Part shown: positions 31,978 through 62,751 of the stretch, one piece after another
Layout: each line of letters begins with the position of its first letter
How positions within the stretch are numbered: position 1 is the first letter of the stretch
Assembly: GCA_031362565.1 (NCBI GenBank)
Contig: JANLSU010000081.1
Coordinates: 32,001-96,000, forward strand
Origin: a bacterium
GTDB lineage: Bacteria > Krumholzibacteriota > Krumholzibacteriia > G020349025
Reading direction: 5' to 3'
Length of the DNA: 64,000 nt
Program-made: the position numbers and the translations under genes
Notes under the pieces: model-generated
What the model saw: the letters and a program-made list of their open reading frames with translations, nothing else
Told to the model about the DNA's origin: nothing
Databases searched by the model: none

Positions 31978-32059
31978 GACTCCACCCTAGGACGTGCGCG
32001 GCGACATCGCAACGCCGGATGCCGGGGCGTCGTGGTCTGGACGCCGCTGCACCCTGGCC

Positions 32060-41447: not shown

Positions 41448-42943
41448 GAGATCGCCACCGCCTGTCCGGCGCGAATCCAGGCGCGCTCATAGAGCAGCAA
41501 GGCAAAGGTCGCAAGTGTCGCGGCGAGCGCGCCGCAAACCGCCGCCGGCACCGGGCCCGACAGCACCATGTGCCCCGTCCCCAGCATCGCCGCACCGGCT
41601 AGGAAAAGCGGCAGTTGCGATTTCATGATGGCGCGCCCGAGATACACCTGTGCCTTGCGCGCATCGGTGGTGCGCGGCCGGTGGCGTAATTCGCCGCCAA
41701 GCACCAGCGTGTTGACGAGCGACAACGCCGCCAAAAGCGCCCCCGCCGTATGCAGCACTCCCGGCGCACCGGGCAGCACGACGGCCACGGCTGCGCCGAG
41801 GAACGCAGCGCGCAGGACGAGCCGCGTGAACAAACCGCGCTCCAACCACAGATCGCGGCCACGACACTGGGCGAACAACCAAGCGCTGTAGCCCGAAACC
41901 AAAATCCCGAGTGGTACTCCGAGCCAACGCGCTACATCGGCGAGCATGCCTTGGCCCAGAACGCGCAGAACGAGCGATGCGCTCGTCGTCGCGCCAAACG
42001 CCATCAGCACCCAAGCGCCCTTGACGAGCCATGATTTCGTATTCGGCCGCAAGACGAGGCGCCAAAAACGCTCCGGCCGCCCCAAGTCATGAATCAACAG
42101 CACGCTCGTGATCGCCGTGAACAGGAGTGCGACGACCTCTGGCACGTAGTCACGCGCCGCCCCCGCACGCACGCCCAAAAGCCCCAAGAACGGTGCGACC
42201 AGCGCCGCGCCGGCGGCGATGTTCTTGGTGACGAGATATGTCCAGACATGCCAGCCCCACTGTGGCGCGTGTCCGACATCGAGCGTCGTCGTGACATCGG
42301 GAACGGGGTCGAGCCCGGCGACGCGCGGCGGCGGCGGCGTAGCGCGATCCGACCACAGCCAGGCGGCAGGTTCGGCGGCCGCGCCGGGCACGAGCGCTTC
42401 CGGCAGCGCATCGATGTACCACACCCGCGGCCCGGTGCCCTTTTCGAGCCGGCGGCGGCTCGTGGGCTCGTCCTGAATGAGGCGCGCGATCTTCGATTCG
42501 GGATCACTCACATCTCCGGAGACGATGGCTTCCGCCGGGCAGACGATGACGCACGCCGGTTCGAGACCCAGTTCGGTGCGATGCGCGCAGTAGTGGCACT
42601 TTTCCGCCACGCCCGTGTCGGGATGGAAGTAGAGCGCGTCATACGGGCACGCTTGCATGCACGCGCGACAGCCGATGCACTTGTCACGGTCGAGATCGAC
42701 GATCGCATCCGGGCGCTTGTTCAACGCATTCACGGGGCAAATCTCGACGCACGGCGCGTGGTCGCATTGATTGCAACGCAGCACCGTGAAGTGCCGGCGG
42801 ACCGACGGAAACGTGCCCTTTTCGACGTACTTGACCCAAGTGCGGAAGCTGCCGAGCGGGACCTCGTTCTCCTGCTTGCAGGCGACAGTGCAAGCGTGGC
42901 AGCCGATACACTTCCGTTGGTCGATGACGAAGCCGACCTGCAT
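41444..42943 (-). CDS. fused 4Fe-4S dicluster (NrfC/DmsB-like) + NrfD/PsrC membrane anchor
   Basis: CIGCHACTVAC, CNQCDHAPC..CP, CIGCRAC..ACP, KCHYC...PAC..CP; then WGW.V..YL, DLGRPERF, SW...GAW and about 8 TMs. Confidence 0.9.
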   Translation of the reverse strand: MQVGFVIDQRKCIGCHACTVACKQENEVPLGSFRTWVKYVEKGTFPSVRRHFTVLRCNQCDHAPCVEICPVNALNKRPDAIVDLDRDKCIGCRACMQACPYDALYFHPDTGVAEKCHYCAHRTELGLEPACVIVCPAEAIVSGDVSDPESKIARLIQDEPTSRRRLEKGTGPRVWYIDALPEALVPGAAAEPAAWLWSDRATPPPPRVAGLDPVPDVTTTLDVGHAPQWGWHVWTYLVTKNIAAGAALVAPFLGLLGVRAGAARDYVPEVVALLFTAITSVLLIHDLGRPERFWRLVLRPNTKSWLVKGAWVLMAFGATTSASLVLRVLGQGMLADVARWLGVPLGILVSGYSAWLFAQCRGRDLWLERGLFTRLVLRAAFLGAAVAVVLPGAPGVLHTAGALLAALSLVNTLVLGGELRHRPRTTDARKAQVYLGRAIMKSQLPLFLAGAAMLGTGHMVLSGPVPAAVCGALAATLATFALLLYERAWIRAGQAVAIS

Positions 42944-48109: not shown

Positions 48110-49519
48110 TCACGGCCCGTAGAGGGCCTGCAACACCGGCGGGTCCGGCTCTTCGACTGCGAGCACGGAATGGCACGTGCTGCAATCCTGGCTGATCGTG
48201 CGGCCAGCGCTCGAGCGGTGTCCATCGTCGTGACAACGGAAACAACCGCTGTCGTCCTGGTGTCCCAACATACTTGGATGCACCGCCCAGCCGACGTTCA
48301 TGTCCGGAAACACATTGCGCTGGTAGATTGCCCGCAATGCCGTTGCCGCGGCGGTGATGTCCGCGGCGCGGGCGGTCACGAGCGACGGATCGGTGCGGCC
48401 GTAGAACGCCCGCAGCGAATCCTCGAAACCAGCCAGCGCCGCTTGCTTGCTCGGGTAGTCCGCTTGCAAGAGGCGCATCGCCTCGCGCTTGACGGACGGC
48501 AGGTCACGCGGAATGCGCCGCGCCTCGAGCGCCGCATCCAAGGCGGCCGCGGGCAGCTCGAATTCGTGTGATGGACGGTTGTGACAATCGATGCAGTCCA
48601 TGCGCCGCTTCGGCAACGCCAGGATGCTGTCTTTGCGCGCCTCGTCACCGCCGCGCCAGTATTCGCGCACCGCGCCGGTGGAATCTTCGACGCTGATCCA
48701 ATGGATCGTTCGCCGGTCGGGGCTCGAACGGTACTCGACGTGGCTCATGGTGTGCCAATGAATGCCGGTTGCGAAACCGGACTGCGGCTTGCCACCGCCG
48801 ACTTTGAGCAAGAGCACGGTCGCCTGGCGGGTGTTGGCCGCGTCCTCGGAATAGCGGCGCAGAACCTTGATTCGATCGCCGTGAAATTTCTCCGGCCAGT
48901 GGCATTTCTCGCATGTCTCGCGCGCCGGCCGCAAGTTGGCGATCGGCGCCGGGATCGGTTTTGGGTAGGTGTGAAGCGTGACCGCCGCCACCTGACGCAG
49001 TCCTGAAAGTTTCGATTTCACAAACCAACTCGCACCCGGGCCGATGTGGCACTCCGTGCAGGACACGCGCGAGTGCGACGAGTTTTGATAAGCGGTGTAC
49101 TCGGGTTCCATCACCGTATGGCATACCTTGCCGCAGAACTGCGGCGACTCCATGTATTCGACTGCATGGTAGCTGCTGAGCGCCAGCACGATGACGTTGA
49201 TCCCGGTCAAGGACAGCAGGATGACGATGCGGCGGTGGTCGAGACGCAGCGGCAGTGCGCCGTCGCCCGCACCGCGACGGCGGTTGCGCGCCACCGCCAC
49301 CGCGATCAACAGCAATCCGGCGATGAAGACGCCGGGCAGGACGAGGAAGGCGAAAATTCCCGTGTACGGCGGCAAGCTCTCGATCGTCAGCACCAGGATC
49401 ATCAGCACGACGATGCCAATCGCCGACACCGTCACGAGCGCGATCGCGAACAGCCCCAAAAGGCTCCGTGACCCTACCGCAACCATCTCACGGATCGTTT
49501 TCCACATGGCGCGCATCAT
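48110..49519 (-). CDS. membrane-anchored NapC/NirT-type multiheme c cytochrome (ImcH-like)
   Basis: Three N-terminal TMs; CGKVCH, CTECH, CEKCH, CIDCH, CFRCH, CSTCH; KSKLSG.RQ and RPARETC motifs. Confidence 0.85.
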   Translation of the reverse strand: MMRAMWKTIREMVAVGSRSLLGLFAIALVTVSAIGIVVLMILVLTIESLPPYTGIFAFLVLPGVFIAGLLLIAVAVARNRRRGAGDGALPLRLDHRRIVILLSLTGINVIVLALSSYHAVEYMESPQFCGKVCHTVMEPEYTAYQNSSHSRVSCTECHIGPGASWFVKSKLSGLRQVAAVTLHTYPKPIPAPIANLRPARETCEKCHWPEKFHGDRIKVLRRYSEDAANTRQATVLLLKVGGGKPQSGFATGIHWHTMSHVEYRSSPDRRTIHWISVEDSTGAVREYWRGGDEARKDSILALPKRRMDCIDCHNRPSHEFELPAAALDAALEARRIPRDLPSVKREAMRLLQADYPSKQAALAGFEDSLRAFYGRTDPSLVTARAADITAAATALRAIYQRNVFPDMNVGWAVHPSMLGHQDDSGCFRCHDDGHRSSAGRTISQDCSTCHSVLAVEEPDPPVLQALYGP

Positions 49520-49670
49520 ACCAAAGGACCCGATGCAGATGTCGCGCCGCATTTTGATGACGACATCGTCATTTTTCGGCACCGTCGCCGGTGCGATGAC
49601 TCTCAACGCATGCAAATTGTCGTTTGAGGCGCGAAAAAGCCGCGATTCCTTCTCTCCACGGCGGCCGGTT

Positions 49671-49687
49671 CCGGTATGCTCATTGCG
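49671..49687 (+). promoter_or_regulatory. putative sigma54 -24/-12 promoter of the tetraheme cytochrome
   Basis: ccGGTATGctcaTTGCg, GG-N10-GC. Confidence 0.65.
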
Positions 49688-49780
49688 TCGTTCGTACATG
49701 AACGGTATGAAGGAACGGCGATCACGCGGACAAATGTGCGTGCGCTGTCCGTACCAGAGGCTGAAGGGTGGCGTGTGCAG

Positions 49781-50335
49781 ATGAAGCGAAGGGCGTACGT
49801 GCGAGCTGCGAGTGTGGCGGTGCTGTGCATCGCGGCGTTCGCAGGGCGGGCGGCTGCCGAGGGTGCCGCAGTCCACAAGTATATCGGCGCCGAGAAATGC
49901 GCCCTGTGTCACAAATCCGAAGCCAAGGGCAATCAGTACGGCAAGTGGCTCACGACCGCACATGCGAAGGCGTGGGCAACGCTCGCCAGCCCCAAGGCCC
50001 TCGAGATTGCCAAGAAAAAGGGCATCACGACGCCGCCCCAACAAACGGACGCCTGCGTCAAATGCCACGTCGCCGGTTTTGGACAGCCGGCGGCGATGTT
50101 CGACGCGAGTTTCAAGAAAGAGCTGGGCGTGCAATGTGAGGTCTGTCACGGACCGGGCAGCGACTACAAGGGTATCAGCGTCATGAAGGACAAGACTGCA
50201 GCGATCGCGGCCGGGCTCCTCGTGCCGGACGAGTCGACGTGCAAGAAGTGTCACAACGCCGAAAGCCCGACGTTCACGACCTTCGACTATAAGGCGATGT
50301 ACGCCAAGATCACCCATCCGCGTCCAAAGACGTAG
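49781..50335 (+). CDS. periplasmic tetraheme cytochrome c (c554-like)
   Basis: Signal peptide; YIG..KCALCH, W..T.HA.A, CVKCH, GVQCEVCHGPGS, CKKCH. Confidence 0.88.
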   Translation: MKRRAYVRAASVAVLCIAAFAGRAAAEGAAVHKYIGAEKCALCHKSEAKGNQYGKWLTTAHAKAWATLASPKALEIAKKKGITTPPQQTDACVKCHVAGFGQPAAMFDASFKKELGVQCEVCHGPGSDYKGISVMKDKTAAIAAGLLVPDESTCKKCHNAESPTFTTFDYKAMYAKITHPRPKT

Positions 50336-50475
50336 TCCCAAAGCCGGTGCGCGCGCCAAGGGCATCGTTCCCTTGGCGCACGCACGCGGTGCGGAGAGTT
50401 TGCTACACTCCTCGGTGTTCCCTTTGGATCCTTGGCCGTGAGGGCCTACGGGCGGACCGCACCGAGGCAAAGCGC

Positions 50476-53016
50476 ATGCGAACCCTAATTCTCGTCTTTC
50501 TGACCTGCGGGCTTTGGAGCCGTCCCGCGCCGGCAGAAGACCTGTACGTGGGGCACCCCAAACTGCTCTTCACGGCCGCCGATGTGGCGGGATTACGCGC
50601 CAAGGTGGCCGATGGCGGCGCCGACGACGCCACCTACGCCGCAATGCGCACCTGGGCCCAAGGGGCGCTGGCTTTTCCGACGACCTCCCTGCTCTCCTAC
50701 GCTGAAGGCATCTCGGCGACCGGACAAATGGCTCTGGTGTCGCAGATCGAGACCAACGGCGCGGCGTACGCGGCCAAAACGCGCCAGCTCGTGCTCGAGG
50801 TGGCGCGCAACCGCCCTTCCACCAACGACGAGTTCGCCTCGGGCCTGCGGCTGCAGGTGATGGCGCTGGGCTATGACCTCGCATTCGCCGGCGCGACGCC
50901 GGCCGAACGCGACGAGGTGCGCCACGCGATGCGCGCCGCACTCGACTTCATGCCGCCGCGCTTCAACTACTACTGCCAGGCCTACAACCCCTACTGCGGC
51001 AACCACGGGATGACGGTCGGAGCTTCGATGGGGCTCGCAGTCATCGCACTCTGGGATGACGTGTCGCCGGCCGGCCAGGACTCACTCGCAACCGCCTTGG
51101 CATTCGCCGATCCCATCATTCAGAAGTGCCTGACGGATATCCTGCCGGACGATGGCGCGTACCGCGAAGGCGTGCTGTACGCCGGCTGGATCCTGCATGT
51201 TACAGCGCCGTACTTCGAAGCCCGGCGCCGCTTCGATGGCACTGATTTCGCCGCCGACCCGCGCTTCGCGCGCCTGATCGAATGGCTGTGCTACGAACTC
51301 GCGCCCGATGGCGGCGGGCGCACGAACAATCTGAACGATTCGCCGTGGTCGTCGCGGCCGTTGGCTCTCCACGGCACCGTGATCGAATGGGCGCAGACAC
51401 GGCTCGGCAGCCCGCTCGCGGCGTATCTGCACGACCACGTTCTCGGCAGCTTCGGATTCGACTACGGACCGCCGGCCGACCGCCTCGCAACGGTGCTCTG
51501 GTGGCAACCCATCGCACCGCTCAACCCCGCGGCACTCCTGCCCTCCGGGCGGCTCTTTCCGTCCCGCGGCCTGTACTATTTCCGGAACGGCTGGAAGACG
51601 GGTGCCAGCGGCGACGAGGTCGTGTTCGCGTTCTCGTCGGGCAAGTTCTATGGCGGGCACGCGCAGGAAGATCGGAATCAATTCACTCTCGCTGCCTACG
51701 GCCAGCGCTTCGTGGTCGATTGCGGCGCCGTCGGCAGCACCGCAACCCCGAAGCAGAGCGAAGCCCACAATCTCGTCCTCGTCGATGGCATCGGACAGCA
51801 CAACGCCGGAAACTCGATCGGCACCGACGGCGCCATCGTCTCGTCCCTGGTATCGGGATTCGCCGACTACGTGCGGGGCGATGCACGGGCTGCTTACGCC
51901 ACCTACAGCGCATTCAACTCCCCCGGCGTGCCGTTCGCGGCCTCCGACTGGAGCTGGGGATACGACGGCGGCAATCCGCTCGAGCGCGCCGATCGCACCT
52001 GCATCGTCGTGAAGGACGGCACCGCGCCGCCCTGGATGCTCGTCGCCGATGACATGCGCAAGGACGCGGGGTCACATGCGTGGGACTGGCTCCTGCACAC
52101 GTCACAGGTTCATACGATCGATGTCGCGAGCGACCCGGCGCAGGTGACGGGCTCACAAGCGACGCTCGACCTTTACTTCGCGCATCCGCGCCCGGCGGAC
52201 TTGGCGCTTTCGTGGGCGCCGTTCACCCACGGCGGCACCGATCCGCCGACGAATCGCCTTGTCGCGCACCACAACGCCGTCGAACCGCGCTTCGCCGTCG
52301 CGCTCGTTCCGCGCCGCAACGGCGACGCGGCGCCGCTGTACGCCTCCACCAGCGACAGTGTTTCGACGGAGTTGTCGCTCGACTGGGGATCGGCGCGCGA
52401 CGTCTTGGTTTTCAATCCGCACCGCGTGCGCGTCACGCACGAGATCGACACCGATGGTGTGGCCGCGTTGGTCCGGCGCGCCGCGGGGGCCGTGCGCGGC
52501 TACCTGCTGGCCGACGGCACGTTCATGCGTGAAGGCGGCATCGACCTCGTCGTGCTCGGCGGGGTCGCATCCGCGGCACTCGCGGGCGATTCGCTCGAAC
52601 TCTCCAGCGACGATGTGCCGTTCACGGCCTGGGGTCCCGAAGTCGTGGCCGTCCGCGGGCCCTCGGGCCCGCGCGCCTTCGTGCGGGACGGCGACGTCGT
52701 CCGGAATCCAACGGCGACGGACGTTGCAGCCCTCGGGGCGAGCCTGCAAATCGAACCGCTCCGGCCCCAACCGGCGCGCGGCGGCGCGACGCTGCGTCTC
52801 GCGCTCAACCACTCCGCCCGGACTCGAGTGCGGATCGTCGACGCCCGTGGCGGGCTCGTCCGCGATCTTGGCGAGCGCACCCGTTCAGCAGGTGCCGTCG
52901 CAATTCCCTGGGACGGCCGCAGCGCCTCGGGCCGCCCCGTTTCACCCGGCGTCTACTTCTTCGTCATCGAGCTGGCCGGACACTCGACGGCCCTGAAGGT
53001 CGTGCTGATCCGCTGA
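50476..53016 (+). CDS. secreted heparinase II/III-family polysaccharide lyase-like protein with FlgD-Ig-like C-terminal domain
   Basis: HPKL.F, NH, DG.Y.EG..Y, R.GW, GHAQ.D.N.F.L...G, AHN.VLVDG; C-terminal WDGR...G..V.PGVYF. Confidence 0.78.
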   Translation: MRTLILVFLTCGLWSRPAPAEDLYVGHPKLLFTAADVAGLRAKVADGGADDATYAAMRTWAQGALAFPTTSLLSYAEGISATGQMALVSQIETNGAAYAAKTRQLVLEVARNRPSTNDEFASGLRLQVMALGYDLAFAGATPAERDEVRHAMRAALDFMPPRFNYYCQAYNPYCGNHGMTVGASMGLAVIALWDDVSPAGQDSLATALAFADPIIQKCLTDILPDDGAYREGVLYAGWILHVTAPYFEARRRFDGTDFAADPRFARLIEWLCYELAPDGGGRTNNLNDSPWSSRPLALHGTVIEWAQTRLGSPLAAYLHDHVLGSFGFDYGPPADRLATVLWWQPIAPLNPAALLPSGRLFPSRGLYYFRNGWKTGASGDEVVFAFSSGKFYGGHAQEDRNQFTLAAYGQRFVVDCGAVGSTATPKQSEAHNLVLVDGIGQHNAGNSIGTDGAIVSSLVSGFADYVRGDARAAYATYSAFNSPGVPFAASDWSWGYDGGNPLERADRTCIVVKDGTAPPWMLVADDMRKDAGSHAWDWLLHTSQVHTIDVASDPAQVTGSQATLDLYFAHPRPADLALSWAPFTHGGTDPPTNRLVAHHNAVEPRFAVALVPRRNGDAAPLYASTSDSVSTELSLDWGSARDVLVFNPHRVRVTHEIDTDGVAALVRRAAGAVRGYLLADGTFMREGGIDLVVLGGVASAALAGDSLELSSDDVPFTAWGPEVVAVRGPSGPRAFVRDGDVVRNPTATDVAALGASLQIEPLRPQPARGGATLRLALNHSARTRVRIVDARGGLVRDLGERTRSAGAVAIPWDGRSASGRPVSPGVYFFVIELAGHSTALKVVLIR

Positions 53017-53486
53017 GGTGCGAGCGCCCCGGTGCGGCCGGGCTGGAAATTCACCACCGCCGCCTTGGAACCGCCCAGTTGCTCGATATAGGGACGCGCG
53101 ACTTCCTCGAGCGTCGCCGCCTGCAACGTATCGCGCACGGCATTTTCGACGCGCGCAAACACGTCCAGGAGCGAACAGTCGCCGGCCAACGCACAGTCGG
53201 CGTCGCCCGTGCAGTCGAAGGCACGCACCGGGCCATCGATCTGCTCGATGATGTCGGCGACGGTGATTTCATTGGGCGCGCGCTGCAGGCGGAAGCCGCC
53301 GTGGTGCCCCTTCATCGACGCGATGAGTCCACCTTTGACCAGCCGCTGCAGGATGTGGGCGAGCAGGAAGTGCGGCGTACGCATCGTCTGAGTGATTTGT
53401 TGCAGCGGCACGTAGTCCGCCGTGGGCCGCGCCGCGAGATAGATCATGGCCCGCAGGCCGTAGTCGGCACTTCTCGACAGCATCAT
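52953..53486 (-). CDS. Rrf2 family transcriptional regulator
   Basis: DYGLRAM..LA, S.KG..GGF.L, C-x5-C-x5-C FeS ligands. Confidence 0.9.
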   Translation of the reverse strand: MMLSRSADYGLRAMIYLAARPTADYVPLQQITQTMRTPHFLLAHILQRLVKGGLIASMKGHHGGFRLQRAPNEITVADIIEQIDGPVRAFDCTGDADCALAGDCSLLDVFARVENAVRDTLQAATLEEVARPYIEQLGGSKAAVVNFQPGRTGALAPQRISTTFRAVECPASSMTKK

Positions 53487-53570
53487 CGTGGTTCTCCCCC
53501 GAGTCGCTCCGCGCACGGCCGGCGCATGAGTCACGGCGGCGATGGCGAGGCACGTTCTGCAGCGGGAGCA

Positions 53571-53625
53571 TTGCGAGCCGCGTGCCGTTCCAGGACGCCG
53601 CGCCGCAGAACACAACGGGTTGATT
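53571..53625 (-). promoter_or_regulatory. sigma54 promoter plus IHF site upstream of the Rrf2 gene
   Basis: acGGCACGcggcTCGCAa (53588-53571) and AATCAAcccgTTG (53625-53613), an exact WATCAR-N4-TTR match. Confidence 0.75.
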
Positions 53626-53745
53626 TCATGTCTTTTGGGCGTTGGGCGCCAAAATGAGCCGACGCCGCACGTGTGTCGAAAAGACGCACTGGAGCGAGCG
53701 GACGCAGCCGCCGGCGCGTTGGATCCTTGCCGCCACCCGCATCGT

Positions 53746-56700
53746 TCAACGAGCCACGACCGCGAAGGCTCCCTCCCGGCGCAGCTGTCTGGCGCGCCAC
53801 AATTTGTAGATCGGCGGATACACCAGCAGTTCGAGCAGGAACGAGGTCACGAGCCCGCCGATCATCGGCGCCGCGATCCGCTTCGTGACGTCGGCGCCGG
53901 CGGCGGTCGACCACAGGATGGGCAGCAGGCCCAAGAATGCCGCCGCCACGGTCATCATCTTGGGCCGGGCGCGGCGCACCGCGCCGTGCAGAATTGCCGC
54001 ATCGAGGTCGGCCATGGACCGCAAACGGCCGGCCTTTTGCGCTTGTTCGTACGCCAGATCCAGGAACAGCAGCATGAAGACGCCGGTCTCCGCATCGAGC
54101 CCCATGAGAGCAATCATCCCGACCCAGGCGGCGATCGAGACGTTATACCCGAGGATATGGAACAGCACTACGGCGCCGACGATCGAAAACGGCACCGCCA
54201 GCATGACCACCGAGGCCTTGAACGCCGAACGGGTGTTCGCATAGAGCAGCATGAAAATGAGCGCCAGCGTGATCGGCACGATGAGCTGCAAGCGCTCGCG
54301 GACCCGTTGCATGTTCTCGTACTGGCCGCTCCACTGCAGCACCACGCCCGCCGGCAGTTCCACCTGGTCGCGCACGACCCGCTTCGCTTCCTCGACATAG
54401 CCACCCAGGTCGCGGTTCGAAATGTCGACATAGACGTAGCCGGCGACGAAGCCATTTTCGTCGCGCACCATCGACGGCCCCTCGGCCAGCTTGACGTCCG
54501 CCAGTTGGCCGAGCGGCACCTGAGCGCCGCGCGGTGTCGAGACCAGCACGCGCCGCAATTGGTCGATGTCGTCGCGCCACTCGCGCGGGTAGCGGACATT
54601 CACCGGGTAGCGTTCCCGCCCTTCGATGGTCGTCGTGACGTTCTCGCCGCCGATGGCGCTGACGATGACCCGTTGCAGGGATTCTACGGTCAATCCGTGG
54701 CGCGCCAACTGTTCGCGACGCGGTTCGAAGTCCACGAAGTAACCGCCGGCGATGCGCTCCGCATACACGCTGCGCGTTCCCGGTACGTCGCGCAACACGG
54801 CCTCGATGTGCTCGCCGATGCGTTCGATTTCGCGGGCATCGCCCCCCAGAATCTTGATGCCCACCGGGGTGCGGACGCCCGTCGACAGCATGTCGACGCG
54901 GGCCTTGATGGGCATGGTCCACGAATTCGTGGTGCCCGGAATGCGCAGCGCCGCATCCATTTCGTCGACGAGTTGCTCGTACGAAATGCGATCGGGCCAG
55001 ATCGGGCGCACCAGGCGCTGCACAGGATCCGGCATCCAGCTCGAATACCAGCGTGGGCGGGCCCGCCATTCCCGGTCCGGTTTCAAAACGACCGTGGTTT
55101 CCATCATCGAAAACGGCGCGGGATCCGTGGAGGTGTCGGCGCGGCCGGCCTTGCCGAAAACCCGCTCGACCTCCGGAAAACTCCGCAAGACGCGATCTTG
55201 AGTCTGCAGCAGCTCTTGCGCCTGCGCCACGGAAATCCCCGGCAGAGTCGTCGGCATGTACATCATCGTGCCCTCGTGGAGCGGCGGCATGAACTCCGAA
55301 CCGAGGCGCACGTAGGCCGGCAGCGCCAGCAAGACGATCAAGACCGCGCCGCCGATCACCTTGCGTGGATGCCGCAATACGAAACGGCAGGCCGGGTCAT
55401 AGACCCGGGCAATGGCGCGGCTGATCGGGTGGCGTGCCTCAGCGTGGTACGTGCCGACCGCCAAGTGCGTCACGAACCGCGCCAACCATGCCGGCCGGAA
55501 GCGGAACGGGTCGACGCGCGTGAACATCATGCGCATCGCCGGATCGAGAGTGATCGCCAGCAGTGCGGCTATTCCCATCGCCAGGTTCTTGGAGTAGGCG
55601 AGCGGCTTGAACAAGCGCCCTTCCTGATCCACGAGTGCGAAAACCGGCAGAAAGGCGACGGCAATCACGAGGAGCGACAGGAACACCGCCGGAGCGACTT
55701 CTTGCATCGCCTGCAGGCGCACCTGGTGGAAATCACCGTGGCGGCCGCCGGCGTGCCATTCGTGCAGTTTGTTGTAGGCGTTTTCGACTTCGACAATCGC
55801 CCCATCGACGAGCACGCCGATGGAGATGGCGATCCCGGCGAGCGACATGATGTTGACGGTGACACCGAGGGCGTAGAGCGGGATGAACGACAACAGCACC
55901 GCCACCGGGATCGTGACGATGGGAACCACCGCCGACGGGATGTGCCACAGAAAGACCAGGATGACCAGCGACACGATGATCATTTCGACAAGCAGTTCAT
56001 GCCGGAGAGCGTGGAGAGCGCGATGGATGAGATCGCTGCGGTCGTAGGTGGTGACGATTTCTACACCATCGGGCAATGAAGGCTCGATGTCGCGCAGTTT
56101 CTGCCGGACCCGGTCGATGACGTTGAGTGCGTTTTCGCCGTGCCGCATCACAACGATGCCGCAGACGTGATCGCCCAATCCGTCCAGGTCGGCAACGCCG
56201 CGGCGGATTTCCGGGCCGATCTCGATGTGCGCCACATCCCGCAACAGGATCGGCGTGCCCGAGGAATCCGCCTTTACCACGACCGACGCCAGATCCTCGA
56301 CCGAGCGCGCATAGCCGCGGCCGCGCACCATGTATTCGCGGCCGCTCCATTCCAGAAGACGGCCGCCGACTTCATTGTTGGAGCGGCGAATCGCCTCGAC
56401 GACGTCGTCGAGCGGTAACCGGTATGCCGCCAGTTGATTCGGATCGACCGTCACTTGGTACTGCTTCACGAAACCGCCGATGGCGGCGACTTCGGCGACC
56501 CCCGGTACCGACTGCAGCGCATACCGCAGCGTCCAGTCCTGAAACGACCGGAGCTCGTCCAAAGAGTGTTTTCCGGAGTGATCGACCAGTGCGTATTGAA
56601 ACACCCAGCCGACACCCGAGGCGTCCGGCCCCAGTTCCGTCTGCACGCCGGCGGGCAGGCGCGGTTGAATCTTGGACAAGTATTCGAGCACCCTGGAGCG

Positions 56701-57015
56701 CGCCCAGTAGATGTCGGTACCATCCTGGAAGATGACATAGACGTAGGAAAATCCAAAATCCGAGAAGCCGCGCACGGCGCGAACCCGCGGCGCTCCCAAG
56801 AGCGCCGTGACGATGGGATACGTCACCTGATCTTCTAGAATATCGGGGGATCGTTCCCAGCGCGAATAGATGATGACTTGAGTGTCGGACAGGTCGGGCA
56901 ACGCATCCAAGCGGATGACCCGCAGCACGTGGATCGCGAAGGCGCACGCCGCCACGGTGGCGAGCAGGACGAAAATGCGGCGTTCGGCCGAGAATGCGAT
57001 GATGCGCCGGATCAT
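53746..57015 (-). CDS. cusA: CusA/SilA-type heavy-metal efflux RND permease
   Basis: LDALPDLSD.QVI, GPDA.GVGW...Y, MSL.GIAI.IG..VD; Met triad equivalents YMPTT, SMMET, TMPIK. Confidence 0.92.
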   Translation of the reverse strand: MIRRIIAFSAERRIFVLLATVAACAFAIHVLRVIRLDALPDLSDTQVIIYSRWERSPDILEDQVTYPIVTALLGAPRVRAVRGFSDFGFSYVYVIFQDGTDIYWARSRVLEYLSKIQPRLPAGVQTELGPDASGVGWVFQYALVDHSGKHSLDELRSFQDWTLRYALQSVPGVAEVAAIGGFVKQYQVTVDPNQLAAYRLPLDDVVEAIRRSNNEVGGRLLEWSGREYMVRGRGYARSVEDLASVVVKADSSGTPILLRDVAHIEIGPEIRRGVADLDGLGDHVCGIVVMRHGENALNVIDRVRQKLRDIEPSLPDGVEIVTTYDRSDLIHRALHALRHELLVEMIIVSLVILVFLWHIPSAVVPIVTIPVAVLLSFIPLYALGVTVNIMSLAGIAISIGVLVDGAIVEVENAYNKLHEWHAGGRHGDFHQVRLQAMQEVAPAVFLSLLVIAVAFLPVFALVDQEGRLFKPLAYSKNLAMGIAALLAITLDPAMRMMFTRVDPFRFRPAWLARFVTHLAVGTYHAEARHPISRAIARVYDPACRFVLRHPRKVIGGAVLIVLLALPAYVRLGSEFMPPLHEGTMMYMPTTLPGISVAQAQELLQTQDRVLRSFPEVERVFGKAGRADTSTDPAPFSMMETTVVLKPDREWRARPRWYSSWMPDPVQRLVRPIWPDRISYEQLVDEMDAALRIPGTTNSWTMPIKARVDMLSTGVRTPVGIKILGGDAREIERIGEHIEAVLRDVPGTRSVYAERIAGGYFVDFEPRREQLARHGLTVESLQRVIVSAIGGENVTTTIEGRERYPVNVRYPREWRDDIDQLRRVLVSTPRGAQVPLGQLADVKLAEGPSMVRDENGFVAGYVYVDISNRDLGGYVEEAKRVVRDQVELPAGVVLQWSGQYENMQRVRERLQLIVPITLALIFMLLYANTRSAFKASVVMLAVPFSIVGAVVLFHILGYNVSIAAWVGMIALMGLDAETGVFMLLFLDLAYEQAQKAGRLRSMADLDAAILHGAVRRARPKMMTVAAAFLGLLPILWSTAAGADVTKRIAAPMIGGLVTSFLLELLVYPPIYKLWRARQLRREGAFAVVAR

Positions 57016-58439
57016 GGGCGGACTCCCGCCGCGGGCGCCGTCGCGGCGGGCTCGGTCAGTGCGCCGCGCAAGCGCGATTCCGAGTCGAGCAGGAAGTTGG
57101 CGCGCACGACGACGCGTTCGCCGGTTTCGACGCCGGAAAGCACCTGGGCACGGCCGTCGCTGCGCAATCCAACCTTGACGTTGCGCGGCTCGAAGCGGTC
57201 ACCCTCTGTTTCCACGAACACGATCTGATGTTCACCGGAGTCGAGCACCGCGGATTCCGGGATCACGACACCCTCGGCCGACTGCACCGACAACCACACA
57301 TCGACGTACATGGAAGGCTTCAGCATCAGGCGTGGGTTCTCCAGATCGAACCGCACCTTGAGGGTGCGGGTCTCGGGATCCACGTAGGGATACACGTAGG
57401 ATACCTTGGCCATGAGGGTGGTCCCGGGGTCGTACGGCAGAGTCAGTTCGGCCGTTTGCCCGGTGGAGACGAGGTGGGCCTCGTTCTCGTAGAAATCGGC
57501 CTCGACCCACACGTGCGACAAGTCGGTGACGGTGAACATTTCGTACCCGGGCTCGACCTGCTGGCCTTCGATGACGTTCTTCATCGTGACGTAACCGGAA
57601 ACCGGCGCGAAGTACGTCACCGTGCGCTGCGGCCGGCCGTTCCGTTCCACCGTCGCGATGAAATCGGCGGGCACATCCAGCAACTGGAGGCGCCGCCGCG
57701 CCGCCGCCAACAGGTCCTCGGCGCCACGCCGCGTCTCCTCCGGAGCATCGGGCGCCAATTGCGCCACCGCGGTGCGGGCGTGCAGCAGCTCTTCCTGGCT
57801 TGCCAGAAGTTCCGGCGAATACAGTGTGAATGCCGGATCTCCCTGGCGCACGCGCTGGCCCGTGACGTTCATGAGCAGATTCTCGACGAACCCGCCGATC
57901 TTGACGTGCATGTGGTGGATGCGGGTCTCGTCGGCCACGATGATGCCGACGGTCCGAATCCGGCGCGCCAAGTGTTCACGCACCGCAACCGCCGTCTGCA
58001 CGCCGGCAAGCTGCCGCGAGTCGCCGTGCAACGAGATGCCGGCATGCCCGGCGACGGGAATCGACGCCGGGGGCCCCGAATCCGCAAAGACCGGCACGAA
58101 GTCCATCCCCATCGCATCTTTCGCCGGCACGTCGGACCGAACGGTGGGGTCCATCGGGCTGCGGTAGAAGAGAATCCGCGGCTTGGTGGCGTGTTTCCCG
58201 CCCGCTTGGGCGTGCTGCGTCGAATCGGCGGCGACCCGCGGCACCAATCGCATGTTGCAGATCGGACAGTCGCCCGGATGATCGGTGACGTAGGCCGGGT
58301 GCATCGGACAGGTGTACTCCTGCGCCGTTTGGGTCTTGTGAGTGCATCCCGGCATCAGAGCCATGGCGACCGTGATGCCGGCTACGAGCGCCAGGCGCCA
58401 TCCGATTGACCACAGCCGCCGCCAAGCCAGTGCTTTCAT
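57012..58439 (-). CDS. cusB: CusB-type RND periplasmic adaptor with heavy-metal-binding domains
   Basis: YTCPMHP...CPICNM.L, YRSPMDP...MGMD, YSPEL..Q.E, FLLDSES. Confidence 0.9.
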   Translation of the reverse strand: MKALAWRRLWSIGWRLALVAGITVAMALMPGCTHKTQTAQEYTCPMHPAYVTDHPGDCPICNMRLVPRVAADSTQHAQAGGKHATKPRILFYRSPMDPTVRSDVPAKDAMGMDFVPVFADSGPPASIPVAGHAGISLHGDSRQLAGVQTAVAVREHLARRIRTVGIIVADETRIHHMHVKIGGFVENLLMNVTGQRVRQGDPAFTLYSPELLASQEELLHARTAVAQLAPDAPEETRRGAEDLLAAARRRLQLLDVPADFIATVERNGRPQRTVTYFAPVSGYVTMKNVIEGQQVEPGYEMFTVTDLSHVWVEADFYENEAHLVSTGQTAELTLPYDPGTTLMAKVSYVYPYVDPETRTLKVRFDLENPRLMLKPSMYVDVWLSVQSAEGVVIPESAVLDSGEHQIVFVETEGDRFEPRNVKVGLRSDGRAQVLSGVETGERVVVRANFLLDSESRLRGALTEPAATAPAAGVRP

Positions 58440-59734
58440 CGCCAACCTCCCGCATGCGTCGCGTTGCCGGCCGGCGCCGGCGGATGCACGAGCGCCTCGA
58501 TTTCCGCCCAGGTGATGTAACGTTGCGCCTCGCGCCGGAAGAGCGCCCGGCGGGCGCCGATGGCGATTTCCAGATCCTCGAGCACCGTCGCGAAGTCACC
58601 ACGGCCCGCCCCGTAGGTCGAACGCGCCACATCGAGTGCCGACTCGGCTTGCGGCACGATCTCGTCGTGGTAGCGGTGCACTTGCGCATCGTCGCGCACC
58701 CACTGCGCGGCGAGCCGCACCGCCTGCGCACGCACGTCGTTCTCCACATCGGCGAGCTCGAGGCGCGCGGCATCGACTTCGGCATCGGCGGCATGCACCG
58801 CAGGACCCTGCTTGGCGCGCCGCCACACCGGCAGGTCGGCGCCAACTCGCAGCCCGATGACCGGATCGAGCCCGCCACGATTCGCATAGCCGGCGCCCAC
58901 AAAGACGTTCGGCTTACCTTCTTGGCGCTGCGCATGCGCCCGGGCCTCGGCGGCAGCAATCGAAGCGCGTTGCCGCACGACCGCCACCGAGGCGGCAACG
59001 GCGCGCACCGGCAATTCGGCAGCCGCAACTTGCGTCTCCGGCAGGCGCACGAAGGCGCCGAACGAAGTGCCTGGATCCCGTCCGAGCCAACGATTCAGAT
59101 CGGCGCTCGCACCGATTCGCTCGGCCGCAAGATCCGCGAGTTCGGCGTCGACGCGTGACAGCGCCAACTGGGCGCGCAGTTGCGGCTCCATCGCCGCGTC
59201 GCCGGTGCTGTAGCGTGCGGTTCCCGAATCGCGCAGCAGCAACGCCACGTCGCGCGCCGCATCGAGCGCATGGCGCTCGGCATCGAGAGCGTAGAGACGC
59301 GCGTACTGGGTGCGCACCGCGACAGTGACGCGCCGCGCTTCGTCCACGATGTCGACGTCGAGCACGCGCGCCTCCTGTTCGACGGCTTGGCGCTCCGCGC
59401 CGCGCCGTCCGAAGCCACCGAGTTCTTGACGCAGTTCCACCCCCAGCGTCGACATCTCATCCTTGCCAACCGTCCAGCGCGGGAAGCTCACATCCTCGAG
59501 GCCGAATTCGAGCCCCGGATCGGCAAGTGCACCGGCAGCCCTGGCGCGCAGATGCACGGCGGCGGCGCGCGCCCGGCGCGCCGCGATCGAGGGCGCCGAC
59601 GTGAGCGCCGTCGCGACAAGACTGTCGACGGGTGGCGCCTCGGCGCCCGTGCCGACCGGGGTTACGCCGGCGGCCGGCAAAGCGGCGAGCGTCAACCAGG
59701 CGACCAATAGTGTTCGAAGCGAATCGGACAACAT
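58436..59734 (-). CDS. TolC-family outer-membrane efflux protein (CusC-like)
   Basis: Signal peptide, LADP, Y.TG and Y.AG..DF repeats, LP.W; operon with cusBA. Confidence 0.85.
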   Translation of the reverse strand: MLSDSLRTLLVAWLTLAALPAAGVTPVGTGAEAPPVDSLVATALTSAPSIAARRARAAAVHLRARAAGALADPGLEFGLEDVSFPRWTVGKDEMSTLGVELRQELGGFGRRGAERQAVEQEARVLDVDIVDEARRVTVAVRTQYARLYALDAERHALDAARDVALLLRDSGTARYSTGDAAMEPQLRAQLALSRVDAELADLAAERIGASADLNRWLGRDPGTSFGAFVRLPETQVAAAELPVRAVAASVAVVRQRASIAAAEARAHAQRQEGKPNVFVGAGYANRGGLDPVIGLRVGADLPVWRRAKQGPAVHAADAEVDAARLELADVENDVRAQAVRLAAQWVRDDAQVHRYHDEIVPQAESALDVARSTYGAGRGDFATVLEDLEIAIGARRALFRREAQRYITWAEIEALVHPPAPAGNATHAGGWR

Positions 59735-59888
59735 GACCTTCCTCTCGCCATTCCGGCCCGCCCGTGCCGCAATGCTCGCTGACCCCAAGGGACGCCGCGA
59801 AGCCGCGCGCCTGCCGCAGGACAAACGGCAAGGCAACGCCGCACCATGGAGGCGCGCTGCGCAAATGCATGATCGAGAAGGGTCGAGG

Positions 59889-60266
59889 TCAGACGACGAG
59901 AGTGCAGAAGAGCGTCAATATCGATTCGCTATGATGCGCCGCGATGCGTGAGTCGGCCGCGGGCTGCACCAGGTCCGGGCGGCTCGCGGGCACCAGAAAA
60001 TGGATTGGGTAGACGGCGGCCACGAGGTGCGAACTCTGCAAGCCGGTCCGCGATGGAATCTCGCCGCTGGGTGCGAGTGGTGCGGGTGTGGACGCCGGAC
60101 GCGGATGGCAGGAGGCTCCCGGACCGCAGCGGCAGACCCTCCCGGCGCAACACGAACTCACGGCCGAGTGAACCGTTGGTGCACATCGGACGGGCGGCTG
60201 CGCACGCAGGGCGAGCGGCGTCGTGGCGACGAGCCACGCGGCAGCGATTCGAACCCAGGGACGCAA
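59889..60266 (-). CDS. small Cys/His-rich protein upstream of the cus operon
   Basis: Hydrophobic N-terminus, SCCAGRVCRCGPGASCH, C-terminal HHSESILTLFCTLVV; GAGGAGG RBS; start uncertain (60266/60269/60284). Confidence 0.55.
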   Translation of the reverse strand: MRPWVRIAAAWLVATTPLALRAQPPVRCAPTVHSAVSSCCAGRVCRCGPGASCHPRPASTPAPLAPSGEIPSRTGLQSSHLVAAVYPIHFLVPASRPDLVQPAADSRIAAHHSESILTLFCTLVV

Positions 60267-60297
60267 CACGGCCTCCTCGTCCACAAGCGCACCTTCA

Positions 60298-60326
60298 AGG
60301 GTAGAAGGCGCGCCAAAGGCTGTCAA
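60298..60326 (-). promoter_or_regulatory. sigma70-type promoter of the small-ORF/cus operon
   Basis: TTGACA-17 bp-TACCCT; dyad CCTTC-N7-GAAGG overlaps the -10. Confidence 0.55.
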
Positions 60327-60391
60327 CGGGCGGCAGCCCACGCGGTCTTCCACACCTGCAGGTCATCCAGATTCGTGCCATGATGGGACGA

Positions 60392-60796
60392 TCAGTTCGT
60401 GTTCCGTGCGGCTTGGTTGAGGATCCGCAGCAGCATCGCTTCGAGCGACTCCGAGTCGACGGGCTGAGCCAGGTAGAACAGCACCCCGGCGCGCCGCGCC
60501 GCCCGTTCGAGTTCGAGCGAGTGCTCATGGGCGATGTAGACGACGCGGACATCGGGCCGCACCCGGTGGACATCGTCCACGAGTTCCGGCCCCGGACGTT
60601 CCGTCACCGCATCGTCGAGAACCAGGAGCGCCGGATTCAAGAGACAAAGCGCCGTCAGACACTCAGCGGCCGATCCAACTTGGGTCACCCGTGGAGCCCG
60701 CGCCCCGAGCGGCGTAAACGCCTCGGCAACGTGCGCACTCAATCCCCGATCGCGGGTCGCAACCACAACCTGCGAACTCTTAGCCGCGAAGGGCAT
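60392..60796 (-). CDS. stand-alone receiver-like (pseudo-REC) protein
   Basis: REC fold pattern VVVA..D, P.LLVLD, G.ELV..., VVYI, AR.AGV..YL.QP; conserved Lys and Thr/Ser absent. Confidence 0.72.
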   Translation of the reverse strand: MPFAAKSSQVVVATRDRGLSAHVAEAFTPLGARAPRVTQVGSAAECLTALCLLNPALLVLDDAVTERPGPELVDDVHRVRPDVRVVYIAHEHSLELERAARRAGVLFYLAQPVDSESLEAMLLRILNQAARNTN

Positions 60797-60862
60797 TGCC
60801 GCTCCGATCCAAGCCGCGCCGCGCCTCGAACCTCGGCGCGCGTGCGACCTACACACTCCCCA

Positions 60863-60880
60863 GTGCGAGACCCATGCCGG
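60863..60880 (-). promoter_or_regulatory. putative sigma54 -24/-12 promoter
   Basis: ccGGCATGggtcTCGCAc, GG-N10-GC. Confidence 0.6.
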
Positions 60881-60990
60881 TCGCAGCAAACACCCTGCTT
60901 TCGGCCCAGCCGCGCGCCGGCTCGGGCGCTCGAAGGCATCGAGTCGGTCGTCTCGAGCCCTACAGGCCGATGTGTTACCGCACTCGAGCT

Positions 60991-61012
60991 CTTTGTGAAA
61001 TTTTTCACAAAG
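60991..61012. promoter_or_regulatory. Rex-type operator palindrome
   Basis: CTTTGTGAAA-TT-TTTCACAAAG contains TTGTGAA-N4-TTCACAA. Confidence 0.7.
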
Positions 61013-61263
61013 TCTCGCACAGTCCCCAAGTCGCCAATTCCGACCCCGCATGCCCCCGAAAGCCCCATCCCCCGAAGAAACCCCTGGCGCCAACGGACAC
61101 AACCCCCGCAGGGGCAACCGGACCTGGTACGAAGTGAGGATCGCGTTTGGAGCGTGGAATGGGACTCGCCACGATTCCGACTCCGATTCCGACTAGTCGC
61201 ACGCCTCCGAAGACCGCCACGCACCAGCAGTCGCGCGCGTTCGCGCGTTCGCGCCGCCGCGCA

Positions 61264-62751
61264 TCAGTCTTCCGAAACCGCGATTCCGAACTTGCGGATC
61301 TTAGCGTAGAGCTGTTTCCTCGAGATGCCGAGCATTTTGGCCGCGCGCACTTTGTTGCCTTCCGTCATCGCGAGCGCCCGCGTCAGCAGCGCGCGCTCCG
61401 AATCCTCGAAGGTCGGCAGTTCGTCGCTGTTGAACATAAGAACGGGATCGCGGCGCTCGACATGCGGCGCCAGCCCGGACATTTCGAGCGGCAGGTCTTC
61501 GAGAGCGATGGAGTCGCCGCGGCCATACGCAAACGCCACCTCGATGGCATTCATAAGTTCGCGAACATTGCCCGGCCACGCATACCTCGCCAGCGCCGCC
61601 GAGGCGTCAGCCTCGATGCCCTTGACGACGCGCGGGTAGCGCTCGTTGAAGAGGTCGATGAAATACTCGACGAGCAATGGCACGTCTGCCGCACGATCGC
61701 GCAGCGGCGGCAGCGCCAGAGTGTGCACTTTGAGCCGGTAGTAGAGGTCCTCGCGCAGCTTGCCCTCGGCGATCGCCAGGGTGGGATCGCGGTTCGTCGA
61801 AGCGATGAACCGCACATCGACCGCAGTCTCCTGCGTCGAGCCGACCGGCCGCACGCGCCGGTCTTGCAGAACACGCAGCAACTTGGCCTGCGTCTCCGGC
61901 TGCATTTCGGTGATTTCGTCGAGGAACAACGTCCCGCCGTCCGCGGCGCGAACCAGCCCCAGGTACTCGCCCACCGCACCACTGAAGGCGCCCTTCCGGT
62001 GGCCGAAGAGTTCGCTCTCGATGAGCTCCCGGGGCAACGCGGCGCAGTTCACGGCGATGAACGCCGACTTGCCTCCCGGCCCGCACTCGTGAATCGCGCG
62101 GGCGACGAGTTCCTTCCCCGTACCGCTCTCGCCGGCGATCAGGATCGAGGCGCGCCCGTGGGCGGCTTGCTGAATGCGGCTGTACATCTGGCGCATTGCC
62201 GCACTCGCACCCACCATGCCGTGAAAGCTCGTGCGCTGCGCGGCCTCGGGATCGAGGCGTTCCAGATCGAGTTCTTGCCGGCGGGTGCGGGCCGCACTAC
62301 GCGCGTCATGGACGCCGAAATACACCTGCGCGAGCAGGATCATGCGAACGTGCGACAGCTTGTCGAACGTCAGGAGCACATCGGGCCCCTTGGCCAGAAT
62401 CGACAGCTTGTGGCGGAAATAGTGTGCGGCACTTTCCTCGAAGAGATGCATCGAGGCGATGATTTCCTCGAACGGCACACCGCGCTCCACCATGCGCGCC
62501 CCGACCTTCTGCACCTCGCGCGCCAGGGCCACGATGTCCCGCTCGAGGAGCGTCGAGACCACGGCATCCAGATCGAGGCCGAAATACGACTCGAACTCTT
62601 CGCGCGCGAAGGTCCGATCGGGACCGAAATGCAGCGTATAGAGTTCGTACCAACGCTCGAGAACACCGGGGCGATTGTCGCGCAAGATGCGCAGAATCGG
62701 CCCGAGACGTTCGATCTCTTCGTCGTTGATGAGATGGAAATAGCGCGCCAT
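61264..62751 (-). CDS. sigma54-dependent enhancer-binding protein with N-terminal globin-like (RsbR-N/protoglobin-like) sensor
   Basis: GESGTGKE, ESELFG, GAFSGA, FLDEI, WPGNVREL, Fis HTH; about 165-aa all-helical N-domain; GGAGG RBS. Confidence 0.88.
   Translation of the reverse strand: MARYFHLINDEEIERLGPILRILRDNRPGVLERWYELYTLHFGPDRTFAREEFESYFGLDLDAVVSTLLERDIVALAREVQKVGARMVERGVPFEEIIASMHLFEESAAHYFRHKLSILAKGPDVLLTFDKLSHVRMILLAQVYFGVHDARSAARTRRQELDLERLDPEAAQRTSFHGMVGASAAMRQMYSRIQQAAHGRASILIAGESGTGKELVARAIHECGPGGKSAFIAVNCAALPRELIESELFGHRKGAFSGAVGEYLGLVRAADGGTLFLDEITEMQPETQAKLLRVLQDRRVRPVGSTQETAVDVRFIASTNRDPTLAIAEGKLREDLYYRLKVHTLALPPLRDRAADVPLLVEYFIDLFNERYPRVVKGIEADASAALARYAWPGNVRELMNAIEVAFAYGRGDSIALEDLPLEMSGLAPHVERRDPVLMFNSDELPTFEDSERALLTRALAMTEGNKVRAAKMLGISRKQLYAKIRKFGIAVSED

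Follow-up and report, generated by a model that had tools for sequence, protein, structure and literature searches.

A candidate low-oxygen regulator in the Krumholzibacteriota: a one-component σ54 activator with a globin-fold input domain and its predicted enhancer

We analysed a 64,000-nucleotide stretch of bacterial DNA (the window; positions 32001–96000 of contig C66, GenBank JANLSU010000081.1) from a genome of the Krumholzibacteriota (G000; 5.4 Mb, 65% GC; window, 66% GC), in comparison with six relatives of the same family (seven genomes with G000) and 54 other genomes of the class. The subject is a one-component σ54 activator with a globin-fold input domain, together with its predicted regulon. 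From right to left, the genes of the 14-kb block around it are ppk, the activator, an atypical stand-alone receiver, cusC/B/A-like efflux genes, an Rrf2-family regulator, a heparinase II/III-like gene with a FlgD domain, a tetraheme c554-like cytochrome and an ImcH-type cytochrome (Table 1). A first-pass annotation had named ImcH-type, tetraheme c554-like, Rrf2, CusA/B/C-like, weak receiver (REC) and globin-fold σ54 activator proteins here, and all of these calls were confirmed; the heparinase-like gene and the enhancer sites were absent from it. Both rpoN and rex were found in G000.

Table 1. Genes and predicted sites of the activator block (window coordinates)
Feature	Position	Strand	Remarks
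One-component σ54 activator	61264–62751	−	Globin-fold input at about residues 1–150, AAA+ with GAFSGA loop, Fis-type helix-turn-helix (HTH)
Stand-alone atypical receiver	60392–60796	−	Activator's most constant neighbour and target; weak REC, under the Pfam cut-off
σ54 −24/−12 promoter of receiver gene	60864–60880 (GG at 60878)	−	12.1 and 14.9 bits (two matrices)
Perfect Rex operator	60993–61010		Between receiver enhancer and promoter
Predicted receiver enhancer	61085–61101		15.3 bits; centre 215 bp upstream of promoter
Rrf2-family regulator	52953–53486	−	C92-x5-C98-x5-C104; RpoS-like sigma gene follows in relatives
σ54 −24/−12 promoter of rrf2	53572–53588 (GG at 53586)	−	Rank 1/3672; 4/2466 with symmetric matrix
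Exact integration host factor (IHF) site	53613–53625	−	Between rrf2 enhancer and promoter
Predicted rrf2 enhancer	53672–53688		Centre 94 bp upstream of −24 GG; 94–95 bp in all six relatives
ImcH-type membrane multiheme cytochrome	48110–49507	−	Called from motif layout
imcH promoter remnant	49534–49550 (motif 49548)	−	−2.7 and 5.1 bits (two matrices), no enhancer
Tetraheme c554-like cytochrome	49781–50335	+	Own motif 49671–49687 weak
Orphan enhancer-like site	50416–50432		13.4 bits; no promoter >7 bits at 45–115 bp
Heparinase II/III-like protein with C-terminal FlgD Ig domain	50476–53016	+	846 residues; only the FlgD tail matched in fetched loci besides itself
cusC-cusB-cusA-like heavy-metal efflux	53746–59734	−	Between receiver and rrf2; no enhancer–promoter pair

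The first-pass annotation had based σ54 control on three motifs with exact GG-N10-GC spacing. All three are present (GG at 49673 on the forward strand and at 53586 and 60878 on the reverse strand), and the spacing in itself is uninformative: the window holds 1417 such sites, and therefore only conservation can rank the motifs. Scored with a σ54 matrix built from the relatives only, the rrf2 and receiver motifs reach 16.2 and 12.1 bits and keep their positions in 6/6 relatives each, and the motif before c554 reaches 5.0 bits and recurs in 0/4 orthologues. Activator, receiver and rrf2 are also present in 6/6 relatives, where the usual order is RpoS-like sigma gene, rrf2, hemerythrin, activator, optionally a c554 paralogue, PFOR and a dihydroorotate-dehydrogenase-like gene, and then the receiver. 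In the relatives imcH is not beside the activator, cus is unlinked to it and the c554 orthologues lie elsewhere. A Hox hydrogenase operon considered downstream in the relatives was rejected; those genes encode PFOR and the dihydroorotate-dehydrogenase-like protein.

Gibbs sampling on 20 upstream regions, taken from the relatives with G000 kept out of training, gave a motif at fixed offsets from the −24/−12 box: 103–104 bp at rrf2 (6/6), 89–93 bp at the receiver gene (6/6) and 116–118 bp at imcH (4/4). This enhancer was present at fixed spacing in 16/16 rrf2, receiver and imcH regions and was weaker and less regular in the four PFOR regions. Scanning G000 with these relatives-only matrices yielded 3672 candidates, of which the best was the window rrf2 promoter, at 16.2 + 23.7 bits and offset 103, followed by an RpoS-like gene's promoter on contig C9 at offset 102; the combined promoter and enhancer ranks of 60878 and 49673 were 231 and 2343. 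In 16 loci of distant activator homologues (183 kb), the scan found 33 sites above 12 bits, 16 above 15 and 8 above 18, where 30 shuffles gave on average 8.4, 1.5 and 0.2 (never more than 4 above 15 bits; a few palindromes were counted on both strands). Most of these sites are intergenic and 50–110 bp from a σ54 motif, and they revealed the palindromic form of the predicted enhancer, TGTNTCC-N3-GGANACA. Helical phasing of the enhancer distances, judged by eye, was not convincing.

The palindrome also follows the activator across genomes. A strict enhancer-plus-promoter pattern was found in 5/7 family genomes and in 0/54 others of the class (activator, 7/7 and 0/54). In a second class it was found in 6 of 11 activator-bearing genomes, one of the six being a training genome, versus 2 of 70 other genomes, with 3/81 for a reversed control. 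The activator very probably binds the predicted site, and the data support a conserved σ54 unit of activator, atypical receiver and Rrf2 tied by a shared enhancer. To that extent the cascade of pseudo-receiver and Fe-S Rrf2 proposed in the first-pass annotation stands; its cytochrome arm is not supported in this genome, although imcH is a strong predicted target, with enhancer and promoter, in 4/4 close orthologues.

The Pfam scan of the activator gives Sigma54_activat at 218.8 bits, with its lid, and HTH_8 at 49.2 bits, with no REC domain. The recognition helix, ISRK[QK]LYAKI, is invariant in 21/21 homologues, whose AAA+ and HTH parts form one clade (support 100/99) relative to four other G000 activators on long outgroup branches. 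The closest named homologues of the input domain (64–68%) are records titled Ca. Krumholzibacteriia or Latescibacterota. More distant ones (37–48%) belong mostly to Binatia or ‘delta proteobacterium’; Myxococcota and Terriglobia each contribute a single record, and three further weak Firmicutes matches (26–27%) were left out. Within the class, the domain occurs in 6/6 same-family relatives and 0/54 other genomes. It is also carried by kinases, SpoIIE and GAF proteins, and most of the longer matches scanned (38 of 127 matches were scanned) have a σ54 activator domain. A second σ54 activator in the window, of REC type, lies with its kinase at 27482–28888 (+).

The structure model of the input domain (predicted local distance difference test score, pLDDT, 89.9) has a 3/3 globin fold. 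Its Foldseek matches are all globins or phycobiliproteins, none reaching E 0.001. The model aligns with the globin-coupled sensor 4uiq at Z 15.6 (root-mean-square deviation, rmsd, 2.7 over 144 residues), with the next globin-coupled sensor at Z 15.2, and with RsbR-N (2bnl) about 1 Z below the best heme sensors, at Z 14.4 (rmsd 2.3 over 128 residues). By sequence, the domain gave nothing under E 0.1 against the PDB and no Pfam family at E 0.01, RsbRD_N included; its nearest Atlas clusters, at 0.89–0.90, carry RsbRD_N in 18–22% of members, which is a lead. Helix F (model residues 73–90) has no proximal His, so heme coordination through F8 is excluded and direct heme–O2 sensing is not the first assumption to make. 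Leu occupies position 87 in 34 of 37 sequences and Met does so in 2, and the only conserved His columns are 6, 41, 102 and 134. The invariant residues are H6, W34, Y38, H41, R90, E96, E105, E106, D130, K131, H134 and R136. R90, present in 21/21 homologues, closes helix F; PMC8717448 describes an Arg near the end of helix F in fatty-acid-binding RsbR-type globins, to which R90 may correspond. By analogy, one ligand lead would be a fatty-acid-like hydrophobic anion held on R90 in the globin pocket; others are a His/Glu/Asp metal site and a relay from hemerythrin.

A hemerythrin gene lies directly before the activator in the relatives, and a single query found none in G000. In relative G005 this gene is cut down to a C-terminal remnant (L013:344–481). 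A metagenomic protein, P0002, joins DUF2249, hemerythrin and the globin domain in one chain, the start of its AAA+ domain running out of frame. A literature search, covering the main text of mostly open papers, found no description of the one-component globin–σ54 architecture or of the operator. The activators with a heme-less globin input are a real family, to all appearances undescribed, shared by two distant lineages of uncultured bacteria.

The receiver gene is present in 6/6 relatives. D61 and D62 are invariant, keeping the phospho-site Asp, the Lys is replaced in all six family rows, and the window protein has Ala at the Thr/Ser place; on these residues the protein departs from the canonical phosphorylatable pattern. 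A receiver homologue is divergent from the activator in 11/16 distant loci, and 14 of 36 distant enhancer–promoter pairs aim at a receiver-like gene, a count that is not independent of matrix training. Sites at least as strong as the window receiver enhancer number 16 in G000, and 0.0014 are expected in that intergenic stretch. The receiver gene is probably a target of the activator in G000. A model of the receiver–activator complex scored 0.58 against 0.17 for the best control (contacts agreeing by at least 54%, partner pLDDT at least 77), a value classed as weak in a benchmark in which 18 of 157 true pairs and both false passes among 215 lay at or under 0.60. We tentatively suggest that the receiver may feed back on the activator.

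The Rex-type palindrome listed in the first-pass annotation is a perfect box and lies at this promoter. Genome-wide, boxes with at most one mismatch number 11, against 0 and 0 in two shuffles. G000 thus has both a rex gene and operators of the TTGTGAA-N4-TTCACAA type, the Rex consensus given in PMC2883068, as expected of a Rex regulon. A box with at most two mismatches stands at the receiver promoter in 4/7 family genomes (3/6 relatives), and in those relatives it sits upstream of the enhancer; an inversion of that block would explain the enhancer–Rex–promoter order of the window. The redox link drawn in the first-pass annotation is supported to this extent; the theme of the regulon is broader than electron transfer. 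The Rex box was rejected as the activator's own enhancer: other Rex boxes precede rex and genes that we take from their N-terminal sequences to be nuo-like and alternative-complex-III-like, and these have no strict σ54 match.

The three Cys residues of the window Rrf2 protein recur in the five relatives compared (5/5) and, from their pattern, are likely Fe-S ligands; the protein scores under all equivalog cut-offs. The exact IHF site claimed at rrf2 is present. Exact matches number 23 in G000 (0.27 per 64 kb), and among the relatives the site is exact in 1/6, retains an AATCAA core at the same offset in 3/6 and is absent in 2/6. No Rrf2 homologue matched within the 16 distant loci (the remainder of those genomes was not searched). 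A second Rrf2 gene, on contig C11, is divergent from a flavoprotein/Rieske/cytochrome b operon, and two perfect Rex boxes lie 34 bp apart downstream of it (C11:12280 and 12314).

A second, symmetric matrix was trained also on 16 distant-locus sites. With it, six enhancer–promoter pairs in G000 (five enhancer sites) scored clearly above the best of two shuffled genomes (23.4 and 26.7), and a seventh marginally so. The strong-pair targets are a quinol-dependent NO reductase (qNOR; C89), which is the top-scoring predicted target, the RpoS-like sigma gene (C9), a resB/ccsB operon (C121; ATG 364 bp from the site by a crude gene call), the window rrf2 and, on C110, a divergent pair with genes for a receiver, a protein without a family and a zinc-dependent alcohol dehydrogenase (Zn-ADH) on its forward side. 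The receivers of C110 and of the window are not close homologues (probability 7.8%). At PFOR (C92) the family spacing is kept, with weaker sites (9.0 + 10.4 bits, 92 bp). The predicted regulon is not identical with the 14-kb block and takes in no more than part of the genes around the activator. Similar 160-residue proteins without a Pfam or NCBIfam match follow qNOR (C89:39446–39928) and lie between the receiver and ADH genes (C110:7607–8086). At C33:89410 a 21-bit enhancer-like site falls within a called gene, and a further RpoS-like gene is about 2.6 kb from it.

In the distant loci, 22 first genes of the 36 pairs were scanned (13 receiver-led pairs and one duplicate were left out), and 9 of the 22 encode universal stress (Usp), CBS or Hsp20 proteins. 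The others encode DUF2267, Zn-ADH, acetyl-CoA hydrolase, COX2, cytochrome c, two phosphoribosyltransferase-type proteins, one Crp/Fnr-type protein, MacB, HlyD, a hydrolase and two proteins without a family. These targets (Usp, CBS, Hsp20, oxidase) and those in G000 (qNOR, resB/ccsB, ADH, RpoS-like) fit low oxygen.

Several known systems resemble parts of this one. NorR and NifA are one-component σ54 activators with a sensor–AAA+–HTH layout, enhancers 50–110 bp upstream, IHF in between and an NO reductase target. The activator described here shares the layout, enhancer distance, IHF placement and NO reductase target, but its input is not GAF, PAS or V4R, its operator is different and its regulon is wide. 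Mycobacterial DosR belongs to the LuxR-type response regulators, works with heme-GAF kinases and does not involve σ54, and its Usp, CBS, Hsp20 and phosphoribosyltransferase targets are classes that recur in our distant loci. The Desulfovibrio hmc operon has a stand-alone receiver and an Rrf2 protein (rrf1/rrf2) beside multiheme redox genes, and in the Borrelia Rrp2–RpoN–RpoS cascade σ54 drives an RpoS-type gene; the likeness lies in the receiver and Rrf2 near multiheme genes and in the step from σ54 to an RpoS-type gene. We know of no globin-fold activator in either system. The main text of the D. vulgaris σ54 regulome paper mentions none of rrf, hmc, Rex or globin.

A close functional parallel is NmpRSTU of Myxococcus xanthus, which, according to PMC11841059, comprises a globin sensor and a σ54 activator, NmpR, that targets CBS, Usp, oxidase and hemerythrin genes in hypoxia; the same text links Usp to the DosR regulon. 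Nmp works as a phosphorelay, in which the kinase is a heme-binding protoglobin and the activator, of REC type, acts on GCGCA-N5-TGCGC, whereas in the present system globin fold and activator form one protein, there is no helix-F His and no REC, and the site is the TGTNTCC-N3-GGANACA palindrome. In fold, the input domain resembles the non-heme globins of the RsbR, RsbRD_N and pXO1-118 type (2bnl, 3zta, 3pmc), which share a 3/3 fold without proximal His and may also share the Arg near the end of helix F (PMC8717448). The known carriers are stressosome proteins, kinases, DsrT (PMC6018805) and transcription factors of PucR type, for example MabR (PMC11617747); the activator instead has a σ54 AAA+ domain as its output, and Pfam RsbRD_N gives no match.

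We put at about two in three the probability that this activator is a one-component master regulator through which the cell adapts to low-oxygen or reductive, possibly nitrosative, conditions and that it works like NmpR or DosR; the condition sensed is quite probably low O2, redox state or NO. A signal at the heme-less globin domain would release the AAA+ domain, and the activator, bound through its HTH to the palindrome 50–110 bp upstream, would loop to σ54 polymerase at −24/−12, with the help of IHF at rrf2. First-tier outputs in G000 would be Rrf2, the RpoS-like sigma factor, qNOR, resB/ccsB cytochrome c maturation, the C110 operon of receiver and Zn-ADH, the atypical receiver and, with weaker sites, PFOR. 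The atypical receiver would be a possible feedback partner of the activator, its promoter also gated by Rex (NADH/NAD+). ImcH and c554 would be wired in among the relatives, the wiring in the window having decayed after rearrangement.

Several points weigh against this interpretation. The window receiver enhancer lies at 215 bp, versus 80–84 bp in the relatives. The activator loop, GAFSGA in 20 of 21 homologues and GSFSGA in one, departs in all of them from GAFTGA, the canonical σ54-activator loop. The complex score may reflect solved NtrC-type REC–AAA+ proteins. Hemerythrin is not an obligatory sensor, since the single query found none in G000 and the G005 gene is truncated, and because qNOR is found in G000 only of the seven family genomes, that target comes without a conservation check. 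Results of the symmetric matrix are not independent of the distant scan, from which 16 of its training sites came, and kin are not independent of one another. The strict pattern misses 5 of the 11 activator-bearing genomes of the second class and 2 of the 6 relatives and matches two genomes without the activator. G000 has 22 strong Sigma54_activat domains among 26 matches, and C-termini were compared for 12 only.

These many activators leave room for a rival reading in which the palindrome is genuine but its reader is not the globin activator, a mere neighbour, and could be Rrf2, some Crp/Fnr-type factor or a different one of the 22 activators. The site upstream of rrf2 in all seven family genomes, as an autoregulatory site might be, and the two matching genomes without an activator point the same way. 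We consider this very improbable, as the motif tracks the activator across two classes, the distant loci gave no Rrf2 match within the limits stated above, and the recognition helix is invariant. Activator enhancers characteristically have a fixed spacing to the −24/−12 boxes and a TGT...ACA frame, and this motif has both. A different question is what is sensed. The signal could be NO or Fe-S damage rather than low O2, detected by a NorR-like sensor through a metal site of H102, E105, E106, D130 and H134, which are invariant or nearly so, or through a hemerythrin relay; the rank of qNOR, the resemblance of the three-Cys Rrf2 to NsrR/IscR and the hemerythrin and DUF2249 links would fit. This is unlikely in our view, given qNOR in 1/7 family genomes and PFOR, ADH, ImcH, resB/ccsB, Usp and CBS targets that fit anoxia generally. 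Non-canonical heme binding, with direct sensing of O2 as in globin-coupled sensors, gains from the domain's best fold matches being heme sensors, from the title of 4uiq, which places heme at a dimer interface, and from invariant H41 and H134. It is nevertheless improbable, with no helix-F His, few conserved His columns, RsbR-N within about 1 Z, the RsbRD_N lead from the Atlas clusters and an Arg90 that ends helix F, possibly at the place of the Arg of RsbR-type globins.

The first-pass annotation had proposed that the whole block (48110–62751) is one local cascade leading to a quinol-to-periplasm route, c554 and ImcH being driven directly here and cus serving metal balance. In its favour, ImcH and c554 orthologues belong to the predicted regulon among relatives, remnant motifs stand at 49548 and 49673 with an orphan enhancer-like site at 50416, with one asymmetric matrix a site 155 bp from 49673 reached 9.2 bits, and the stretch from the receiver stop to cusC had no terminator-like call. 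The promoters of c554 and imcH are nevertheless at background in the window, with a best symmetric-model enhancer of 2.1 bits, cus is unlinked to the activator in relatives, and the best targets lie on other contigs, so we regard such a cascade as improbable in this genome. At 49673, the second matrix gives 5.8 bits, scores above 5 bits come up at a rate of 864 per Mb on one strand, and no σ54 motif above 2.5 bits precedes the four close c554 orthologues, of five fetched, whose upstream DNA was scored; a conserved c554 promoter there is not supported. The c554 gene beside the activator in three relatives is a 42–48% paralogue, and the orthologues (59–61%) end a resB-ccsB operon in G001, G002 and G004. 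This operon has enhancer and promoter in G001 and G004 and no enhancer above 10 bits in G002; in G005, enhancers are kept directly before c554 and the promoter GG is changed to AG. For imcH, matches occur in 5/6 relatives, with close orthologues (56–58%) in four and none adjoining the activator. The cytochrome arm, wired in relatives and weak here, therefore seems ancestral to the regulon and decayed-looking in the window.

Returning to the master regulator, we consider somewhat less likely than not a bolder form of it, in which a new class of hypoxia/redox regulator, a heme-less globin–σ54 activator tuned by a co-regulated receiver that binds it, would run, in Binatia, a survival programme like that of DosR and, in Krumholzibacteria, one of anaerobic respiration with ImcH, cytochrome c maturation, PFOR, qNOR and an RpoS-like sigma factor. 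To our knowledge, little is settled about the ligands of RsbR and other non-heme globin sensors. If the bolder form is correct, the activator would offer a single-protein, reporter-readable model for what such domains sense. A one-component fusion can be placed on a σ54 reporter and screened directly. The analysis offers a testable operator and regulon for an apparently undescribed activator family in two groups of uncultured bacteria, and the operator would mark respiratory modules switched on together in these organisms.

The ImcH-type protein has hydrophobic segments at residues 22–40, 54–72 and 94–112, a CX3CH motif at 125 and five CX2CH motifs; this layout would place it with ImcH, described in PMC6295460 as having three N-terminal membrane helices, an adjacent CX3CH and five to nine CX2CH motifs. 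In G004, a 1031-residue protein with 42 CXXCH motifs is encoded directly upstream of imcH (L065:2719–5814), and in G001 genes for 19-, 10- and 4-heme proteins lie downstream of it (L064). The cusCBA genes, whose cusA matches in the relatives are on other contigs or 2 Mb away, are probably passengers, though read-through from the receiver promoter may reach them; the heparinase-like gene is probably a passenger too. A low-scoring Cys-rich open reading frame between receiver and cusC (59889–60353, −) had no convincing match among the fetched loci. In the relatives, the gene after the receiver encodes a 9-heme cytochrome or belongs to two-component genes. Three relatives have a 9-heme lipoprotein-like cytochrome followed by a protein without a Pfam match (L009:5410–8486, L011:10880–13902 and L013:2945–5559), possibly a porin–cytochrome conduit under the receiver promoter with the neighbour as outer-membrane partner. 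Elsewhere in the window, 4Fe-4S/NrfD-like and molybdopterin-oxidoreductase-like genes, called from N-terminal sequences only, occupy 38652–42943 (−).

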